Source of the DNA: Escherichia phage ST0
DNA: 64,000 bases
Sequence record: MF044457
Direction: 5' to 3' (one strand)
Shown here piece by piece: positions 5,253-52,818 of the stretch. The position numbers were made by a program, and so were the translations under genes. The notes under the pieces were generated by a model, which saw only the letters and a program-made list of their open reading frames with translations, ran no database searches and was not told the origin of the DNA. How positions within the stretch are numbered: the first letter of the stretch is position 1; each line of letters opens with the position of its first letter.

Positions 5253-6151
5253 TGGCTATTTTCCGCGTACCTATCTTGAGTATGCGGTCTTATGAAACTG
5301 GACAGTATGCTATCCTTAAGGATGGCAACTTCCAACTTCATTTGCACCGTGCTAATCCGGGTGATGTGATTACATATCCACGTAATGCATCTGATATTAA
5401 AGAATGTGAACGTCTTTTCCCAGAATTTAAGTTTGTTCCATTATGGTATAAAGATAACGCGTATAACACTCGTAAATATTTCTGGTCTGAAAATGAATTT
5501 GTGGTTGATTCATTAATTGCTTATTATGATTGTGATTTTCTAATCACAGATATCACTGGATACGACGGCGCTTTTGACGTAGAATTCAATTTCAATATCA
5601 CTGCAGACCCTAATAAACCACGTTTTTATATTGACGAATTCTTAAAAACCGATATGTTGTCGGTTAATCGTTCACTTCAAACTACCGTGTTGAATAAACG
5701 TCAAAAGGAAGTGCTGGTTAACGCTGGTGCAGATGGTAATAAGATTATCGTAACGCAGAAAGTTATACGTCCTTCCATCATGCAGCGTCTTGTAGGTGAT
5801 TTGGCTCCTATTCATCTAGATGGTATTTTTCATCCATTTCGAATTAGTGACCCGTGCTATCGTTTTGAACAAGTGGTTGAATGTGCAATTCAATTAGGCC
5901 AACCGCTTTATATAACCGATCCAAATAATAGCTTCGACAGAAATAAGTATCCTGAAGAAGCGCTGATTCGAATTTTTAAACCAACTAAAACTGAGTACTA
6001 TCAAATTCTTAAAGGACGGCCGAAGATTCAATATTTCGAAAATCCTGAAGAAGTATTCCATCCAGGTCTTGGTGAGTTCATCTACTTTAATGCTTTAATT
6101 TCTTCACCGTATAATATACCTAAATACGAAGATGTCGTAATCGAGGAATAA
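5252..6151 (+). CDS. hypothetical protein at the beta-glucosyltransferase locus
   Basis: ORF track 299 aa; start overlaps the stop of the hydroxymethylase gene by 1 nt. No motif recognised. Confidence 0.5.
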   Translation: MAIFRVPILSMRSYETGQYAILKDGNFQLHLHRANPGDVITYPRNASDIKECERLFPEFKFVPLWYKDNAYNTRKYFWSENEFVVDSLIAYYDCDFLITDITGYDGAFDVEFNFNITADPNKPRFYIDEFLKTDMLSVNRSLQTTVLNKRQKEVLVNAGADGNKIIVTQKVIRPSIMQRLVGDLAPIHLDGIFHPFRISDPCYRFEQVVECAIQLGQPLYITDPNNSFDRNKYPEEALIRIFKPTKTEYYQILKGRPKIQYFENPEEVFHPGLGEFIYFNALISSPYNIPKYEDVVIEE

Positions 6152-9759: not shown

Positions 9760-9765
9760 TAAAAA

Positions 9766-9781
9766 GGAGACTTCGGTCTCC
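9766..9781 (+). terminator. UUCG-tetraloop hairpin terminator after gene 41
   Basis: GGAGAC-TTCG-GTCTCC followed by TTTCGGGG. Confidence 0.6.
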
Positions 9782-9847
9782 TTTCGGGGTTTACATCTTC
9801 CTCTAGGCATGATATGATGTACTTACACAAACCAAGAGGAAAACACT

Positions 9848-10223: not shown

Positions 10224-10252
10224 TTTACTTCTCCAGTAGTTGTGTTATTATA
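10224..10252 (+). promoter_or_regulatory. early promoter (GTTTAC -35, TATTAT -10)
   Basis: GTTTAC, 17 bp spacer, TATTAT, then AGACCTATCA extension. Confidence 0.55.
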
Positions 10253-10277
10253 GACCTATCAACTACCGGAGAACAAA

Positions 10278-11736: not shown

Positions 11737-11740
11737 ACTT

Positions 11741-11770
11741 GTTTACATTATAGATGGACTATAGTATAGT
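11741..11770 (+). promoter_or_regulatory. early promoter
   Basis: GTTTAC, about 18 bp, TATAGT, then TAGTCCTATCA extension. Confidence 0.55.
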
Positions 11771-11799
11771 AGTCCTATCAAATCAACTAAGGAGTTAAA

Positions 11800-15588: not shown

Positions 15589-15615
15589 GGAATCCTTCGG
15601 GATTCCTTTTTTTTT
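15589..15615 (+). terminator. UUCG-tetraloop terminator after soc
   Basis: GGAATCC-TTCG-GGATTCC followed by nine T. Confidence 0.8.
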
Positions 15616-15624
15616 GTTTCTACA

Positions 15625-15654
15625 GTTTACAACCACTAAAAACTGTGTTAAGAT
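15625..15654 (+). promoter_or_regulatory. early promoter
   Basis: GTTTAC (duplicated GTTTACAGTTTAC), about 18 bp, TAAGAT. Confidence 0.45.
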
Positions 15655-15682
15655 ATTCTTACTTACTCAAGAGGAGAACAAT

Positions 15683-17800: not shown

Positions 17801-18409
17801 ATGTTTATGCCGTGTAATGAATGTGAAATTGAGGAAATGGTTCGACGTGCTCAATGCCCAGACTATCAGGATATGCTTCAGTACAAAATCGATGAGCAAT
17901 TCAGTGACATTGAACAAAGTGTACTATGGCAGTGTATGGAAAACAAGCCAGACAGCATCCAACAAGATTTAAGTGCAATTGTTCGTAGAAATTGGTCTTC
18001 TTCAGTTCCTGAGACAATGTATCGTGGAATCTCTAAGAAAACTATGGCCACACTCGATGATAAAGGCGTTGGTAGTATTATTAAATTTGACAGAGTAATG
18101 AGCTTCAGCCCAGTGTTCAGTGTAGCACGTAACTTCGCTTCATATAATTTTTATGGAACATTTAATATGTTCTGCATCAAAGATGTACCATTTGCTTTCA
18201 ACTTCCGTGAACATATGCTTAATATGATTCTGGCTGCACCGTCTTGTGAGTTCAATGGAGCTTTCCCTGAAGCGACAAGACGGTCTAATGCTAGACTTAT
18301 ATCTGACGAATGTGAATTTATGCTCCCTATAGGGACTACACTGCGTGTAGATTCTATTATTCAAGATGGACGTTATACAATCTGGAATCTGTCTATTGTC
18401 GGTTACTGA
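17801..18409 (+). CDS. ADP-ribosyltransferase, ModA/ModB family (second paralog)
   Basis: 202 aa; TMYRGIS, VMSFSPVFSVARNF, SDECEFMLP follow the same R / S-x-S / E-x-E layout. Confidence 0.75.
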   Translation: MFMPCNECEIEEMVRRAQCPDYQDMLQYKIDEQFSDIEQSVLWQCMENKPDSIQQDLSAIVRRNWSSSVPETMYRGISKKTMATLDDKGVGSIIKFDRVMSFSPVFSVARNFASYNFYGTFNMFCIKDVPFAFNFREHMLNMILAAPSCEFNGAFPEATRRSNARLISDECEFMLPIGTTLRVDSIIQDGRYTIWNLSIVGY

Positions 18410-23207: not shown

Positions 23208-23236
23208 GTTTACTTCTCCTCCGGTTTTGATATTAT
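23208..23236 (+). promoter_or_regulatory. early promoter
   Basis: GTTTAC, 17 bp, TATTAT. Confidence 0.55.
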
Positions 23237-23262
23237 AACCATATCAACCAGAGGAGAATAAT

Positions 23263-25092: not shown

Positions 25093-25109
25093 GGGCTTCG
25101 GCCCTTTTT
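25093..25109 (+). terminator. UUCG-tetraloop terminator
   Basis: GGGC-TTCG-GCCC followed by TTTTT. Confidence 0.75.
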
Positions 25110-25133
25110 GCTTTAGATTTCGGATGATAGAAT
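25107..25133 (+). promoter_or_regulatory. middle (MotA-dependent) promoter upstream of gene 39
   Basis: MotA-box-like TTTGCTTTA about 12 bp upstream of a TAGAAT -10; no -35 GTTTAC. Confidence 0.45.
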
Positions 25134-25155
25134 ACCTTCATAACGAGGAGACAAC

Positions 25156-26973
25156 ATGATTAAAAATGAAATTAAGGTATTGTCAGATGTAGAACATATT
25201 AAGAAACGCAGTGGCATGTATATTGGTTCTTCGGCCAAAGAAGCCCACGAGCGTTTTTTGTTTGGTAAATATCAACAAGTTGAATATGTTCCTGGTCTGG
25301 TTAAATTAATCGATGAGATTATTGACAACTCGGTTGATGAAGCTATTCGTACATCATTTAAGTTTGCAAATAAAATCGATGTGCAAATTAAAAATAATCA
25401 AGTTTCGGTGGAAGATAACGGACGTGGTATTCCTCAAGCAATGGTCACCGACCAAAATGGTGAACAGATTCCAGGTCCTGTAGCTGCCTGGACTATTCCA
25501 AAGGCCGGTGGTAACTTTGGTGATGACTCTGAACGTAAGACCGGTGGTATGAACGGCGTCGGGAGTAGTTTAACTAATATCTTCTCTACGTTGTTTACAG
25601 GCATAACGTCAGATGGCGAAAATGAAATCACTGTTAACTGTTCAAACGGGATGGAAAACAAATCATGGTCTTCTAAGAAATCTAAAGGTAAAGGCACTAA
25701 AGTAATCTTCACTCCTGATTTCTCTTCATTTGAAGAGCATAATTTATCTCAAATTTATTTAGATATTACTTTAGACCGACTTCAAACGTTGGCAGTCGTT
25801 TATCCTGATATCAAGTTCACATTTAATGGTAAAAAGGTTGACGGTAATTTTAAACGATTTGCTAAACAATTTGGCGAAGATAACATCATTCAAGAAAATG
25901 ATAAAGTCTCTATAGCATTCACAACATCACCAGACGGCTTCCGTCATTTAACTTATGTGAATAACATCCATACTAAAAATGGTGGTCATCATGTTGAATG
26001 TGTAATGGATGATATCTGCGAACATCTTTTGCCCGGCATTAAAAAGAAATATAAGGGTATTGAAGTCACTAAAGCTCGTGTTAAAGAATGTCTCACAATG
26101 TTGATGTTTATTAGAGACATGAGCAACATGCGTTTTGATTCTCAGACTAAAGAACGTTTAACGTCAACGTATGGTGATATTCGTAATCATATCCAATTAG
26201 ATGCTAAGAAAATTGCTCAGGCACTTCTTAAAAACGAAGCCTTGATTATGCCTATTGTTGAAGCAGCATTAGCTCGTAAATTGGCAGCAGAAAAGGCTGC
26301 AGAAACTAAAGCAGCTAAAAAGGCAACTAAAGCTAAGGTTCATAAGCATATTAAAGCTAACCAATGTGGTAAAGATGCAGATACGACATTGTTTTTAACA
26401 GAAGGTGATTCGGCAATTGGTTATCTCATTGATGTTCGTGACCGTGAACTACACGGTGGATTCCCATTACGTGGTAAGGTGATGAATAGCTGGGGTATGA
26501 CATATGCTGATATGATGAAGAACAAAGAGCTCTTTGATATCTGTGCTATCACAGGTCTTATTCTTGGTGAAAAGGCAGAGAATACGAACTATCGTAATAT
26601 TGCAATTATGACCGATGCCGATCATGACGGTCTTGGAAGTATTTATCCGGCTTTGCTTGCTTTCTTTAGTAATTGGCCTGAATTGTTTGAACAAGGACGT
26701 ATTCGCTTTGTTAAAACGCCTGTAATTATTGCACAAATTGGCAAAACTCAAAAATGGTTTTATACTGTAGCTGAGTATGAAGAAGCTAAAGATACACTAC
26801 CTAAGCATAGTATTCGATACATCAAGGGATTAGGCTCCCTTGAAAAGTCAGAATATCGTGAAATGATTCAGAACCCTGTGTACGACGTAGTTAAACTTCC
26901 TGAAAATTGGAAAGAACTCTTTGAAATGTTGTTGGGTGATGATTCAGAACTTCGTAAAGAATGGATGTCCTAA
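25156..26973 (+). CDS. 39: DNA topoisomerase II large subunit, genes 39 and 60 fused in one ORF
   Basis: 605 aa; N-terminal GHKL ATPase (LSDVEHIKKRSGMYIGS, IDNSVDEA); C-terminal 130 aa match remembered T4 gp60 (IAIMTDADHDGLGSIYP...KLPENWKELFEMLLGD). Confidence 0.95.
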   Translation: MIKNEIKVLSDVEHIKKRSGMYIGSSAKEAHERFLFGKYQQVEYVPGLVKLIDEIIDNSVDEAIRTSFKFANKIDVQIKNNQVSVEDNGRGIPQAMVTDQNGEQIPGPVAAWTIPKAGGNFGDDSERKTGGMNGVGSSLTNIFSTLFTGITSDGENEITVNCSNGMENKSWSSKKSKGKGTKVIFTPDFSSFEEHNLSQIYLDITLDRLQTLAVVYPDIKFTFNGKKVDGNFKRFAKQFGEDNIIQENDKVSIAFTTSPDGFRHLTYVNNIHTKNGGHHVECVMDDICEHLLPGIKKKYKGIEVTKARVKECLTMLMFIRDMSNMRFDSQTKERLTSTYGDIRNHIQLDAKKIAQALLKNEALIMPIVEAALARKLAAEKAAETKAAKKATKAKVHKHIKANQCGKDADTTLFLTEGDSAIGYLIDVRDRELHGGFPLRGKVMNSWGMTYADMMKNKELFDICAITGLILGEKAENTNYRNIAIMTDADHDGLGSIYPALLAFFSNWPELFEQGRIRFVKTPVIIAQIGKTQKWFYTVAEYEEAKDTLPKHSIRYIKGLGSLEKSEYREMIQNPVYDVVKLPENWKELFEMLLGDDSELRKEWMS

Positions 26974-26988
26974 GCTCCTTCTGGAGCT
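26973..26988 (+). terminator. hairpin after gene 39/60
   Basis: AGCTCC-TTCT-GGAGCT followed by TTCATTTTAATTTT. Confidence 0.5.
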
Positions 26989-27015
26989 TCATTTTAATTT
27001 TAATAAGGCTTAATT

Positions 27016-28116
27016 ATGAAAGTTATGTTTATCCCATCTCGTGCAGTCCCATTTAATCCTGACCGTGTACAAGGTGGCCTTGAAGCAGTACATTTAAATG
27101 TGTTGAAATATCTTGTGTCCATCGGTGCTGATATTGATTATATCGGCTTTGATAATGACACGTTTGGTGACTGGAAAGTTACACACCATCCTGTTGGTCA
27201 TCTGACTAAATTCAGTCTAGGTATGAGTTATACTATGGCTCGTAAGATTGTTGAACTAGCCGACATCCATGAATACGATTTTGTTGTTACTATGGAACCG
27301 ACTAAACTAACCGTTCAGGCAATTAAAGACGCAGGTCTCTCTAAAGTTCATAAGAATTTTATGGCAACACCATTTGAACCGGTATCTCGTGGCATTGTTC
27401 AAATTTGGGACCAGACTATTCAAATTCATAAGAATGGTGGTAAGAGTTATGCTCCTACTAAAGCCTTCCGTGAATTTGAACGTAAATATTGCCATATGAC
27501 TTCAGCTCTGACTGACAAAATTGATTATGATTATTGGCGAGCAAATCCGTTGTTTGAAGCCGAAGATTATCCGGTTATTTGTTTGAATGAGAAACCTGAA
27601 GTTCTTCCAGCGACTGATCTGATTATTAGTGCACAACGTTATGACACTAAAATGCGTCGTACTGATGTTGCTCTTGAAGCAATTAAAGCACTAGGCGAAA
27701 ATGGTATTGGTTATTGTCCTAGTAAATGGGCACCACCAGCTAAATATCCTGTTATTATTGATGCTCCACACAGTGAAATCATGGAACGTCTTAAAACAGC
27801 TAAAGCACTTATTAATACGTGTCCTGACACAGGTACGGTAGAGAATAGTTCTATTGAAGCCATCTCTAAAGGTGTCCCTGTAATCCAGTTAGCTTTTAAG
27901 GATTATCCTCATGCGACATTCGAATACGACCCAGATACTGTGCGTGTCGAAATTGATTCCTCTACTCCTAAGAAAGAAGTAGTTGCGCTTTACACAAAAG
28001 CTGTATTAGAATTCACTGACACATACGAAGCTCGAGTTAAACGTGCTGAAGCAGTATGGAAGAAGTATAATCGAGATGCAGTTGTTGCGATGTGGGATAA
28101 AATCTTCACAGCGTAA
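27016..28116 (+). CDS. GT-B-fold glycosyltransferase-like protein (candidate DNA hmC glycosyltransferase)
   Basis: 366 aa; C-terminal ENSSIEAISKGVPVI resembles the E-x-x-x-x-EA...G-x-PVI donor-binding motif of GT4-type GT-B enzymes. Lies between 39/60 and rIIA. Confidence 0.65.
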   Translation: MKVMFIPSRAVPFNPDRVQGGLEAVHLNVLKYLVSIGADIDYIGFDNDTFGDWKVTHHPVGHLTKFSLGMSYTMARKIVELADIHEYDFVVTMEPTKLTVQAIKDAGLSKVHKNFMATPFEPVSRGIVQIWDQTIQIHKNGGKSYAPTKAFREFERKYCHMTSALTDKIDYDYWRANPLFEAEDYPVICLNEKPEVLPATDLIISAQRYDTKMRRTDVALEAIKALGENGIGYCPSKWAPPAKYPVIIDAPHSEIMERLKTAKALINTCPDTGTVENSSIEAISKGVPVIQLAFKDYPHATFEYDPDTVRVEIDSSTPKKEVVALYTKAVLEFTDTYEARVKRAEAVWKKYNRDAVVAMWDKIFTA

Positions 28117-28208
28117 ATCCTGAATAGCCTGAGGCACTATTACACATAAGATGATAAATTATATGGTCTTTAGTAATAGTGCCCTAGGAATCTACTGAAG
28201 AGAATATT

Positions 28209-28409
28209 ATGAGAACATATAACGTGGACTTGGACCTTTTTGATAAAGCGGTGCTCCGGGAATTCCGGCTTATCCAAAGATTTTTTGATATCGAATCAGC
28301 TGAAGCCTTTAAAGAACGCTTTAAGGAAATTCGATATAAAATACAAACCGATACAGCTACTAAAGAAGAACTTCTTGAAGTAGCAGAAATTTTTAAACGT
28401 AACTTGTGA
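28209..28409 (+). CDS. hypothetical small protein (rIIA.1 position)
   Basis: ORF track 66 aa. Confidence 0.4.
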   Translation: MRTYNVDLDLFDKAVLREFRLIQRFFDIESAEAFKERFKEIRYKIQTDTATKEELLEVAEIFKRNL

Positions 28410-28421
28410 TGAGAGAAAAAT

Positions 28422-30635
28422 ATGATTATTGAAACGGCTAAAGAAACGATTATTGGTTCAGGCGGTAAGAGCACAGCATTTACTATTCAAGGCAATAGCA
28501 AAGTTTATAAGATTTTGTCTAATGACCTTTATACAAACAAAGAATTGGCTTGTGTACGTGAATTAATCACAAACTGTATCGATGGCCAAATTCTTAATGG
28601 TTGCACTGATAAGTTTATTGTTCAGGCTCCAGGTCGTTTAGACCCACGTTTTGTAGTTCGTGATTTTGGACCTGGTATGAGTGATTTCACTATTCGTGGT
28701 AATGACGAAGAGCCAGGAATTTATAACTCATATTTTGCTTCAACTAAAACATCGAGTAACGATTTCATTGGTGGATTCGGACTCGGCTCTAAAGCTCCAT
28801 TAGCATATACTGATACGTTTAACCTTACGTCTTATCATAATGGTGAAGTTCGTGGTTACGTAATCTACCAAGATGACACAGGTCCACAGATTAAGCCGAC
28901 CTTTGTAGATAAGATGGGTCCTGATGACCGTACGGGTGTAGAAGTAGTTGTACCGGTTAACCCGGAAGATTTTGAAAAGTTTGCATCCGAAATTGCATAT
29001 GTTATGCGTCCTCTAGGTGATATTGCAGAAGTTCGTGGTGTTAAAGATATTAAATACTTCCCAGAATTTGATGATGTATATTTGGCCAAGGAAGCTCCAT
29101 GGGGTGAACGTGGTAATATCATGGCTGTTTATGGCGGTATTGTATATCCAATCGGAAGTGTTATTAAAGAACAAACATGGATGATGACACGATGCACTAC
29201 AGCTTATATTAAATTCCCAATGGGTGAACTAGATGTTGCTCCGTCTCGCGAAGCATTGTCATTTGATAAACGTACAGTAGCAAATATCCATAAACGCGTT
29301 GCAGAAATCGATGCTAAATTGTTCGCTGAAGATTCTAAGAAATGGATTGATTGTAAATACCCACGACATGTGTTCCGCGAAATTGATTCTCTTGGCTATA
29401 CCGCTCGTAAATACATGGAAAAGGCCGGGTCTAATATTGAATCACTGAAATACTCTAAAGAACAACTAACCTATTCTGAGTTGTACAAACGTTTTAAAAT
29501 GGGACCTGAGTGGTGTAATCTTGGTGTCGTATACGATATCGTTGAATCCCCTCGTCTTCGTCGTATTCGTGAAAGTGGTAGCTCATCATCAACCATTTCA
29601 ATTAACAGCCTGATTGGCATTAACATTAAAAACGTTGAAATTGTTATTGACGATGTTAAGGGACGCGTTCCATTAATGCGAGCTCTTAATTCAATTGAAA
29701 TGTCTAAAGACGAGGTTAAATTATCCGGTAAAGTTCCACGCGGTTTTGGTAAAAGCGTACTATTCGTTGACCCTACAGACGAAGATGCAATGAAACTTCT
29801 GGAACGCCTTAAAGTTATCTTTGATGGCGACAACATTAACATATACAAGACTTCAGAGCTTTTACAAATCGTTAAGCCATGGATTGAAGTCAGGAAACGG
29901 ACTAATGAGCCTCGTCCTAAATCCCCGAGTGCTCATCGATTCTTTAAGAATGAAAACGATGTTTGGGTATCAGAAGACCTCTTTATTCCGGCAAGTGAAG
30001 CAGATGAAATCCAAGGTTATGCTATAGTTCGTAATCGTTCTAATGCTGAATGTCTTGACGCAGATAAAGGTTGGTTGAACTATGACTCCAATTTCTTGAC
30101 CCGTATTGCTGATTTGTCAGGTATTAAAGAGTTCACTGTAGTTCGTCCACAGATTGCTAAGAAAGTTCGTAAACTTGGTGAAGTAGAATGCTTGTTCGAA
30201 AAATCAATTAATGACTATATTACGCTAATTGATAAAGTGGATTATGATGAGTATGTATCACCAAGTCGTAGAGCACAGCCTTATTTGAATCATATTACTC
30301 GTAACGAAGAGCTTAACTTCCTTAGTAAGTATTTTAGCTCTAAGAACAAAGAAATCAGTAAAGACTTTGCAAAACTCTCAACAGTAAATAATCGTTGGGG
30401 ATGGAATCGATTCGCAGGTGCTACTAATACAGACCTGAATAAGAAGTTAGAATTGTGTGCTAAAATTTTCGATAAGCTTAAAGATAATGCTTACGATAAT
30501 GATGATAAAATGGTTATTGAATTCGAAACCAATTATCATATTGTGTCAGAATACATGGGACGACGTGGTACTCTTTCCAAAGAACAGGTCGCTCAAATCG
30601 TTAAATTCATGAAGGCCGTGGAAGCGGCCAAATAA
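28422..30635 (+). CDS. rIIA: rIIA protein
   Basis: 737 aa; N-terminus MIIETAKETIIGSGGKS... and GHKL-like ELITNCIDG match remembered T4 rIIA. Confidence 0.9.
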   Translation: MIIETAKETIIGSGGKSTAFTIQGNSKVYKILSNDLYTNKELACVRELITNCIDGQILNGCTDKFIVQAPGRLDPRFVVRDFGPGMSDFTIRGNDEEPGIYNSYFASTKTSSNDFIGGFGLGSKAPLAYTDTFNLTSYHNGEVRGYVIYQDDTGPQIKPTFVDKMGPDDRTGVEVVVPVNPEDFEKFASEIAYVMRPLGDIAEVRGVKDIKYFPEFDDVYLAKEAPWGERGNIMAVYGGIVYPIGSVIKEQTWMMTRCTTAYIKFPMGELDVAPSREALSFDKRTVANIHKRVAEIDAKLFAEDSKKWIDCKYPRHVFREIDSLGYTARKYMEKAGSNIESLKYSKEQLTYSELYKRFKMGPEWCNLGVVYDIVESPRLRRIRESGSSSSTISINSLIGINIKNVEIVIDDVKGRVPLMRALNSIEMSKDEVKLSGKVPRGFGKSVLFVDPTDEDAMKLLERLKVIFDGDNINIYKTSELLQIVKPWIEVRKRTNEPRPKSPSAHRFFKNENDVWVSEDLFIPASEADEIQGYAIVRNRSNAECLDADKGWLNYDSNFLTRIADLSGIKEFTVVRPQIAKKVRKLGEVECLFEKSINDYITLIDKVDYDEYVSPSRRAQPYLNHITRNEELNFLSKYFSSKNKEISKDFAKLSTVNNRWGWNRFAGATNTDLNKKLELCAKIFDKLKDNAYDNDDKMVIEFETNYHIVSEYMGRRGTLSKEQVAQIVKFMKAVEAAK

Positions 30636-30644
30636 GGAAACATT

Positions 30645-31592
30645 ATGTACAATATTAAATGCTTGTCCCAAGAAGAACAGTTAGAAGCTTATGGCCTGGT
30701 TGAATCAGGCAAATGGACTCGTAAAGAAATTGCCGATTACTTCGACATTTCAACAGATACTCTTCGTAAGATTGTTAAGAATTTTAAAGCAGAAGGCGTT
30801 GTCCCTGAAGCAAACGATGCCTCTTATGTAATCGAAGAAGTTCCAGAAAATGATGAACCTATTATCGGCGGACATCGTCCTGAAATCGTATGGAACGCGT
30901 CATCTAAATTTATTTCAATTATTGAAGGACGCGTAGCATACAATGCGACTCCATCAAGTCATGCAAATTTTGAAGAAATTAAAGCTAATCTGGTCGCAGG
31001 AAACCTTAATAAAGCTGTCGAACTTATTAACATCAAGAAAGCTATTAGTAAGTTTGTTGACGGTAATGTTGTTATTGAAGGTGGTAGTTTATTTTATCAA
31101 GGTATAGAGATTCGTTCTGGTCTGGTTAATCGTATTATTGATTCTATGGAAAAAGGCGAAGACTTTAAATTCTATCTACCGTTCCTTGAAAACCTGTTAG
31201 AAAACCCAAGCGAAAAAGCTGTACAACGTTTATTCGACTTCTTGGTTGCAAATGATATTGAAATCACTGAAGATGGGCATTTCTACGCGTGGAAAGTAGT
31301 TCGTAAAGATTATTTAGATTGCTATAGCGGTACATTTGATAACTCACCAGGTAAAGTTGTTTCAATGCCTCGTACTCGTGTTAACGATGATGATACACAA
31401 ACCTGCTCCCGTGGTCTACATGTTTGCGCTAAATCGTATATTCGTTACTTTGGTTCTAGCTCAGATAAAGTTGTTAAGGTTAAAGTTCATCCACGTGATG
31501 TTGTGTCCATCCCAGTTGACTATGGCGATGCTAAGATGCGTACTTGTCGTTATGAAGTAATTTCAGACGTTACTGAATTATTTGCAGAATAA
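30645..31592 (+). CDS. rIIB: rIIB protein
   Basis: 315 aa; MYNIKCL..., FLENLLENPS, DFLVANDIEITEDG, KMRTCRYEVI match remembered T4 rIIB. Confidence 0.9.
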   Translation: MYNIKCLSQEEQLEAYGLVESGKWTRKEIADYFDISTDTLRKIVKNFKAEGVVPEANDASYVIEEVPENDEPIIGGHRPEIVWNASSKFISIIEGRVAYNATPSSHANFEEIKANLVAGNLNKAVELINIKKAISKFVDGNVVIEGGSLFYQGIEIRSGLVNRIIDSMEKGEDFKFYLPFLENLLENPSEKAVQRLFDFLVANDIEITEDGHFYAWKVVRKDYLDCYSGTFDNSPGKVVSMPRTRVNDDDTQTCSRGLHVCAKSYIRYFGSSSDKVVKVKVHPRDVVSIPVDYGDAKMRTCRYEVISDVTELFAE

Positions 31593-32427: not shown

Positions 32428-32457
32428 GTTTACAACTAAGTAGGACTATGATATAGT
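32428..32457 (+). promoter_or_regulatory. early promoter with inverted repeat around the -10
   Basis: GTTTAC, about 18 bp, TATAGT; TAGGACTA and TAGTCCTA flank the -10. Confidence 0.55.
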
Positions 32458-32483
32458 AGTCCTATCTAAAAGAGGATAACATC

Positions 32484-32939: not shown

Positions 32940-32969
32940 GTTTACAACAAGGTAGGATTATGGTATAGT
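32940..32969 (+). promoter_or_regulatory. early promoter
   Basis: GTTTAC, about 18 bp, TATAGT, then TAGTCCTAC. Confidence 0.55.
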
Positions 32970-32997
32970 AGTCCTACTGAAACATGAGGAACACAAA

Positions 32998-52236: not shown

Positions 52237-52242
52237 TAAATC

Positions 52243-52264
52243 GGGAGACTTCGGTCTCCCTTTT
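52243..52264 (+). terminator. UUCG-tetraloop terminator after gene 32
   Basis: GGGAGAC-TTCG-GTCTCCC followed by TTTT. Confidence 0.8.
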
Positions 52265-52291
52265 GAGTATCTGTAAATTGCCAAAAAAGAT

Positions 52292-52320
52292 GTTTACTTC
52301 TTCCCTAGATGTGATATTAT
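52292..52320 (+). promoter_or_regulatory. early promoter
   Basis: GTTTAC, 17 bp, TATTAT, then AGTCCTATCA. Confidence 0.55.
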
Positions 52321-52349
52321 AGTCCTATCAACAACATGAGGAAATCAAA

Positions 52350-52754: not shown

Positions 52755-52783
52755 TGTACAATCAGATAGGGTTATGTTATAGT
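52755..52783 (+). promoter_or_regulatory. early promoter with GATAGGG/CCCTATC inverted repeat around the -10
   Basis: GTGTAC, 17 bp, TATAGT. Confidence 0.5.
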
Positions 52784-52818
52784 AGCCCTATCAAATCAAA
52801 AGTGAAGCGGAGAATAAA

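Follow-up and report, generated by a model that had tools for sequence, protein, structure and literature searches.

The DNA analysed here is a 64,000-nt window of Escherichia phage ST0 (MF044457), and its neighbouring genes around the feature of interest all lie on the + strand. They are gene 39, encoding a fused topoisomerase large subunit (gp60plus39, 25156-26973), a GT-B glycosyltransferase gene (27016-28116), rIIA.1 (66 aa, 28209-28409, with its ATG at 28209), rIIA (28422-30635) and rIIB (30645-31592). The glycosyltransferase is of the RB69ORF003c type, which has been proposed to be an hmC-arabinosyltransferase (PMC6024577); we call this putative arabinosyltransferase gene aat. Over 2.5 kb the locus shares 99% identity with Escherichia phage HX01 and 95-99% with about 160 other RB69-like phages (genus Mosigvirus), and by this identity the source phage is a Mosigvirus (RB69/HX01-like). 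Between aat and rIIA.1 lies an untranslated + strand spacer of 92 nt (28117-28208), which holds an entire hairpin and, beyond it, a purine-rich Shine-Dalgarno-like tract (GAAGAGAA; with the rIIA.1 ATG 28196-28211, the SD-like part being 28196-28203). A small ORF inside the spacer (ATG 28151 to TGA 28198, 15 codons) was rejected: it lacks a Shine-Dalgarno sequence, and its peptide would be altered by nearly every natural variant.

The first-pass annotation had placed a perfect 10-bp inverted repeat between the glycosyltransferase stop and the next start, and this placement within the spacer, before the rIIA.1 ATG, is right. Both arms are real and perfectly complementary, but their coordinates had been set 10 nt too far to the right: the left 10-mer (GGCACTATTA) occupies 28133-28142 rather than 28143-28152, and the right 10-mer (TAATAGTGCC) 28174-28183 rather than 28184-28193. 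The 31-nt AT-rich segment between them (28143-28173), with its TAAATTAT at 28155-28162, is also present as described, but instead of an open loop it forms a second helix with a pair probability of about 0.97. The perfect complementarity is really 11 bp, since C28143/G28173 also pair, and complementarity reaches 16-nt arms (28128-28143 and 28173-28188) that form 14 Watson-Crick pairs, one G.U and one A.C. The perfect repeat alone is not beyond chance in so AT-rich a window, since the counts with loops of 3-60 nt are close to those in dinucleotide shuffles: eight 10-bp repeats versus 4.6 +/- 2.1, and two 11-bp repeats versus 1.05 +/- 0.9. Unlike the 10/11-mer repeat alone, the whole fold is beyond chance.

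The complete + strand structure is a bipartite hairpin of 61 nt (28128-28188). Its 16-bp lower stem is formed by a 5’ arm (CCTGAGGCACTATTAC, 28128-28143) and a 3’ arm (GTAATAGTGCCCTAGG, 28173-28188), which include the left and right 10-mers, respectively, and its only imperfections are the A28132.C28184 mismatch and the G28131.U28185 wobble. Above it, in both the MFE and the centroid structures, lies a 4x2 internal loop with ACAU on the 5’ side (28144-28147) and UA on the 3’ side (28171-28172). The interrupted 8-bp upper stem follows (5’ strand 28148-28156, 3’ strand 28162-28170), in which 28148-28152 pair with 28166-28170 and 28154-28156 with 28162-28164, while G28153 is left unpaired opposite G28165 (a G.G mismatch). 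The stem is capped by an apical pentaloop, AAUUA (GAUUA in most relatives), at 28157-28161. The hairpin starts 11 nt past the aat stop; 20 nt separate its end from the rIIA.1 AUG and 7 nt from the SD-like tract, and with these distances it fills the gap between the footprints of the terminating (aat) and initiating (rIIA.1) ribosomes.

Folding, the check that the first-pass annotation had proposed, gives a stable structure. A 106-nt segment folds at -30.0 kcal/mol (z = -4.17), and none of 200 shuffles was equally stable. Among 12,786 sliding 70-nt segments the hairpin ranks third in stability and first among intergenic ones, with a GC content of only 36%. In a 332-nt context, the 10-bp core of the lower stem has pair probabilities of 0.90-1.00 and the upper stem a mean pair probability of 0.81-0.98 in all nine natural variants tested. 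The minus-strand RNA folds nearly as well (-28.7 kcal/mol, z = -4.16) and the segment also folds as single-stranded DNA (-11.7 kcal/mol, z = -3.5), so that folding by itself does not fix the acting strand or molecule. The two hairpins that are more stable lie in coding regions, at 5281-5350 and 18226-18295 (-29.5 and -28.5 kcal/mol per 70 nt), the latter with 17-nt arms at 18238-18254 and 18268-18284.

Constraint was measured in eight genomes chosen independently of the hairpin region. Only 2 of the 61 hairpin sites vary in this sample, compared with 94 of 367 third-codon positions of aat (Fisher p = 2e-5). Nucleotide diversity is 0.013 in the hairpin, 0.107 at aat third-codon positions and 0.009 at codon positions 1+2, so that the hairpin is about 8-fold less diverse than the neighbouring third-codon positions; in a sample deliberately enriched for spacer variants the values are 0.030 versus about 0.10. 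The 3’ flank (28189-28208) has no variable site among its 20, and the SD-like tract with the rIIA.1 ATG (28196-28211) is unchanged in all relatives examined. As measured by this sequence comparison, the hairpin segment is under strong purifying selection.

Among the natural variants, a single common polymorphism lies inside the hairpin, A/G at 28157 in the apical loop. Two transitions in SQ17 (28135 and 28156) each leave a G.U pair on the + strand RNA, and in the clade of AV109, AV114, AV115, AV116 and AV118 a CT>TC change at 28184-28185 renders all 16 lower-stem pairs Watson-Crick and takes the folding energy from -26.3 to -34.0 kcal/mol. Template switching at the quasi-palindrome, rather than selection, could also account for this double change. 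Variants that break pairs are all singletons, and three of the four affect the end of a helix or the weak apical helix; RB69 has an A.C mismatch within the core stem that would be G.U on the minus strand. In an alignment of the variants 94.3% of cells are paired, versus 29-50% in slid registers, although the structure was derived from those same sequences; for the upper stem the value is 98.9%. No pair is changed on both sides among the 11 distinct sequences, which at 98% mean identity are too similar for covariation to have power, and at such low divergence conservation of sequence is inseparable from conservation of structure. The pattern of variants is qualitatively compatible with selection for pairing.

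Two further observations concern these variants. Across Mosigvirus, the spacer haplotypes defined by 28126 (A/C, just upstream of the hairpin) and 28157 (A/G) are A-A, A-G and C-G; the fourth, C-A, was not seen among the sequences examined. Annotations in the AV clade start rIIA.1 10 codons earlier, at GTG 28179 (L025 1363-1593), because the CT>TC change removes an in-frame TAG at 28185-28187; the longer rIIA.1 is probably an annotation artefact.

The 92-nt spacer occurs in 153 phage records at 95.7-100% identity, all of them Mosigvirus-type and, a duplication in phage JK45 apart, with one copy per genome; the phage-record search found it in no other phage group. Scans of IMG/VR with the exact arms returned the orthologous site plus one chance match within a 716-aa ORF and nothing else, a metagenome scan yielded four further, near-identical copies, and no copy of the hairpin was found in 5,426 complete E. 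coli genomes. With a single copy in phages and none in E. coli, we rejected a repeat family, a REP/BIME, a MITE-like or a mobile element. Rfam 15 has no matching family, its snoRNA and S15-leader matches being at chance level (E = 1.6-8.5) and far under the gathering scores. Segment 1501-1531 of an unrelated phage, Phapecoctavirus AV125 (OR352955), matches the left arm and upper stem at 27/31 positions (CTGACGCACTTTTATATATAAGATGATAAAT). This match was also considered and rejected as a relative of the hairpin: it has E = 0.2, lies in an unrelated divergent intergenic context and has no partner arm, and is probably due to chance or to an AT-rich, promoter-like composition common to both sites.

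Other T4-like genera have no spacer at this place, since their rIIA.1 lies directly against the gp39/gp60 coding sequence or overlaps it. The hairpin is found only where aat is inserted between gene 39 and rIIA.1, and close homologues of aat are confined to Mosigvirus. By this distribution of spacer and gene, the hairpin is part of the downstream edge of the inserted aat segment. We rejected the idea that the hairpin travels with aat as such, because the next aat relatives, at 43% identity in Acinetobacter phages, have other gene neighbours and an ordinary C(UUCG)G hairpin behind them. Two rearrangements were seen nearby. In AV114 (OR352944, segment 1628-2425) and SQ17, a 798-bp HNH homing endonuclease gene lies between gp39 and the 42-nt spacer that precedes aat; this echoes mobA, which we take to occupy the same 39/rII locus in T4, which makes the 39/rII junction a hotspot for insertions. 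Shigella phage JK45 (MK962757, segment 1710-2212) carries a 503-bp tandem duplication, matching about 27719-28224 of the window, that copies the 3’ 400 bp of aat plus the complete hairpin spacer and fuses the first five rIIA.1 codons in frame to an aat fragment; the fusion is annotated as a hypothetical protein of 136 aa. The duplication may be a real product of illegitimate recombination or an assembly artefact.

The surrounding transcription signals indicate which RNAs would contain the hairpin. Upstream of gene 39 (25096-25140), a terminator (GGGCTTCGGCCC-TTTTT) is followed by a MotA box (TTTGCTTTA) and, after 12 nt, by TGaTAGAAT, a PmSL-like arrangement. Directly after the gene 39 stop, a 7-bp hairpin, AAGCTCC(TTCT)GGAGCTT (26972-26989), with a T-rich tail to 27000, resembles a weak terminator; the annotation of phage MM02 lists it as a putative terminator. 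We recognised no promoter for aat, so that aat would depend on read-through past this site. A strong terminator follows rIIB at about 31600. Given these surrounding terminators and promoters, the hairpin would be transcribed within a 39-aat-rIIA.1 read-through RNA. The literature searched contained no description of the hairpin, no RB69 transcript map and no RB69-like cleavage or transcript ends.

A candidate MotA-type promoter lies within rIIA.1 at 28314-28342, about 70 nt upstream of rIIA. It consists of GAACGCTTTA, with CGCTTTA at 28317-28323, and TATAAAAT 11-13 nt later (28335-28342), and, to judge from its position relative to what we take to be the T4 gene coordinates, it probably corresponds to PrIIA, a middle promoter of T4. 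The start site of T4 PrIIA is listed in PMC2988021. Since rIIA thus appears to have a promoter of its own, it would be independent of read-through past the hairpin, and the earlier suggestion that the structure regulates rIIA is too specific; the hairpin appears to concern the aat/rIIA.1 junction more directly.

The feature is an intercistronic stem-loop, a familiar kind of object, of which this individual example is previously undescribed. We tentatively favour, at slightly less than an even chance, the reading that it is a cis-acting RNA element in the 39-aat-rIIA.1-rIIA-rIIB message, serving as a processing site and/or a barrier to decay. The prereplicative polycistronic + strand mRNA would run from gene 39 through aat, rIIA.1 and rIIA to rIIB, and once transcribed, 28128-28188 would fold into the long irregular hairpin and act post-transcriptionally at the aat/rIIA.1 junction. 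A double-strand-specific nuclease may cut in the hairpin, whose geometry is like that of RNase III substrates, or else the hairpin may block 3’->5’ exonucleases; the aat message and the rIIA.1/rII message could then differ in stability. What the analysis shows is the structure itself, with its exceptional stability, position, single occurrence and strongly conserved sequence; we infer that the hairpin acts as RNA rather than as DNA, that a nuclease acts on it and that expression is affected. The processing or decay reading is favoured by the stability, robustness and placement of the structure, by its constraint and pattern of variants, and by the failure of the testable alternatives, namely promoter, intrinsic terminator, RBS sequestration, repeat family or mobile element, and Rfam family. 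Besides a terminator, the first-pass annotation had listed an RNase processing site and a protein-binding site; an RNA processing or stability site, or a protein-bound RNA, is plausible and fits the stability, placement and conservation of the hairpin.

Several known systems offer comparisons. The RNase III signals of T7 and T3 (for example R1.1) are intercistronic irregular hairpins in polycistronic early phage mRNA. Our hairpin is like them in occupying an untranslated gap of a polycistronic early mRNA and in having a lower and an upper helix, a small internal loop and about 24 bp in total: its 16 + 8 bp are stacked over a 4x2 internal loop, with pair probabilities of 0.8-1.0 in all variants. 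It is unlike them in that it has no sequence similarity to them and occurs as one site per genome rather than as a set, and a role for RNase III is suggested by resemblance. We know of no T4-type phage with a dependence on intergenic RNase III sites. The REP stem-loops that separate malE from malF are intercistronic mRNA stabilisers that act as barriers to 3’-exonucleases, and such stabiliser hairpins can give the upstream cistron a half-life different from that of the downstream one. Like them, the aat hairpin is a stable stem-loop just past a stop codon with no U-run; unlike them, it is larger, bipartite, present in one copy per genome and absent from E. coli.

Within T4-like phages, the PeSL (Arbiol et al. 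2010, PMC2839356; Comeau et al. 2014, PMC4122927) is a multi-copy unit in which a terminator stem-loop precedes a TTTACW-N17-TAYWAT promoter. The aat hairpin resembles PeSL and PmSL units as an intergenic stem-loop in the early region beside a gene that varies between genera, but it has neither a terminator-type stem nor a promoter and is single-copy. True PeSL-type units are numerous in the same window (for example 9760-9820, 15590-15660 and 52240-52330), and there is a PmSL at 25096-25140. The hairpins of T4 gene e, soc and I-TevI, which sequester the SD/AUG and contain an internal promoter (PMC3014915), are likewise RNA hairpins upstream of a gene in read-through early transcripts; ours differs in having no internal promoter and in ending 7 nt before the SD-like tract. 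Since its stem stops at 28188, before both the tract (28196-28203) and the AUG (28209), sequestration of the translation initiation region of the gene e/soc type was rejected. A replication origin was rejected as well: the account of origin positions in PMC3016281, which locates T4 oriA near soc, makes no mention of the rII/39 region.

Among the rival explanations, those that involve transcription signals can be set against the window’s own examples. The recognisable terminators of this phage are all short C(UUCG)G hairpins followed by T-runs, many of them combined with a promoter in a PeSL or PmSL unit. The first-pass annotation had offered a terminator as one possibility, but the spacer hairpin is no intrinsic terminator of this kind: its 16-bp stem, with 36% GC overall, surrounds a further 29 nt folded into a second helix, no U-run follows it (AAUCUACUGAAGAG on the + strand, CUAUUCAGGAUUUACG on the minus strand), and a terminator scan of 26800-29000 did not call it. 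A non-canonical pause or attenuator, by which the hairpin would slow or partly terminate RNA polymerase coming from aat and so reduce read-through into rIIA.1, would suit so stable a hairpin in the nascent RNA between two cistrons and would be tolerated by rIIA with its separate MotA-type promoter candidate; with no U-run in GCCCUAGGAAUCUACUG, the negative scan and a 61-nt bipartite shape that is not terminator-like, we give it only a slight chance. A promoter in the upper hairpin, sense or antisense, with the arms as operator, is very improbable. It would account for the -10-like TAAATTAT of the first-pass annotation, for an extended -10-like TGaTAAATT (28152-28160) and an ATTACA-17 nt-TATGGT (28139-28167) on the + strand, and for a perfect TATAAT on the minus strand (28163-28158). 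Against it, the minus-strand TATAAT has no acceptable -35, the common A/G polymorphism and the variants of MM02 and SQ17 hit the candidate -10 hexamers, and a generic sigma-70 scan found no promoter in the spacer. The window has 26 strong T4-type early promoters, T(T/G)TAC(A/T)-N16-17-(TGn)TAYWAT followed by a conserved leader. An nhmmer profile made from 25 promoters of this same window recovers its 25 plus one more promoter-like site (26 matches, all E <= 1.7e-4), but matches the spacer only at E = 87, covering the ribosome-binding part alone (28193-28214), so that the TAAATTAT does not hold up as part of a promoter. On the outcome of the profile we rejected an early promoter or PeSL. When the spacer was aligned by Smith-Waterman to every other intergenic region, with shuffled controls, the best match, the early-promoter cassette at 11737-11799, scored 27, below the shuffled 95th percentile of 28, and is not significant. 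The MotA box, (a/t)(a/t)(a/t)TGCTTtA at 12 +/- 1 bp upstream of TAnnnT (PMC2988021), has no GCTT core on either strand of 28117-28208, the best approximation being AGCCTGA with two core mismatches; the T4 late box TATAAATA is absent from both strands, and the closest sequence, GATAAATT, reads GATAGATT in most relatives.

The other rivals place the function in DNA or in a bound protein. The palindrome may be a DNA-level feature or scar that marks the downstream boundary of the aat cassette and has little or no RNA role, whether as a recombination joint, a template-switch quasi-palindrome or a double-stranded or cruciform protein site; we regard this as unlikely. It agrees with the restriction of the spacer to aat-carrying genomes and of close aat homologues to Mosigvirus, with an insertion-prone locus (the HNH gene of AV114 and SQ17, the 503-bp tandem duplication of JK45), with a structure that is nearly strand-symmetric and folds as DNA too, and with the AV-clade CT>TC change, which is exactly what hairpin-templated mutation would be expected to produce. 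However, a scar with no function would be expected to diverge about as fast as synonymous sites, whereas diversity in the hairpin is lower by a factor of roughly 8 (p = 2e-5), and neither a target-site duplication nor a second copy was found. As a protein site, it would have half-sites 41 bp apart centre to centre, a spacing atypical for dimeric DNA-binding proteins. Distinctly unlikely, in our estimate, is an RNA operator, at which a protein of the phage or the host would bind to repress or activate rIIA.1 translation. The distance of only 7 nt from hairpin to SD-like tract would suit such an arrangement, as would an upper part and 3’ flank conserved as much as the stem, but the low diversity of the loop is not significant (P = 0.12), there being only 13 unpaired nucleotides; the loop matches neither the RegA nor the gp32 site motif as we take these to be, no candidate binding protein is known, and rIIA.1 has no known function that needs such control. 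The layout would be similar to that of the T4/RB69 gp43 operator, likewise a hairpin upstream of an initiation codon, which however extends over the RBS and has a different loop, -UAAC- (PMC3014915). Very unlikely, in turn, is a more elaborate version, a dedicated and sequence-specific operator or processing switch in the RNA, acquired together with the aat cassette, to which a phage or host protein would bind and so set the output of the DNA-modification enzyme relative to that of the rIIA.1/rII membrane-protection genes.

What the hairpin means for the phage depends on which of these readings holds. RB69-like phages are isolated from the other T-even phages by their arabinosylation of hmC, and if the hairpin controls processing or decay, as we favour, it would show how a horizontally acquired DNA-modification gene came to fit an existing early operon while leaving rII expression undisturbed. 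The post-transcriptional control of the T4 family, in which such sites are poorly documented, would then also gain a site of the RNase III or decay-barrier type. A dedicated operator or switch acquired with aat would constitute a regulatory RNA-protein pair new to T4-type phages, and a functionless hairpin would be simply a well-conserved intergenic palindrome. In practical terms, the 61-nt segment needs care when Mosigvirus is engineered at the popular 39/rII locus.

Two other kinds of potential hairpin were seen at early promoters elsewhere in the window. A dyad-symmetric element (TAGGACTATGATATAGTAGTCCTA and variants) surrounds the -10 box of several of them, at 11742-11790, 32429-32470, 32941-32980 and 52755-52800; it would form a hairpin solely in read-through transcripts or in DNA, and we know of no such element in the T4 early-promoter consensus. 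At 10224-10275 and 23209-23262, in arrangements of the gene e/soc type, the segment between the -35 and -10 elements of an early promoter is complementary to the downstream Shine-Dalgarno sequence (for example TTCTCCTCCGGTT...AACCAGAGGAGAA), and the RBS would be sequestered in transcripts from upstream promoters and free in those from the proximal promoter.
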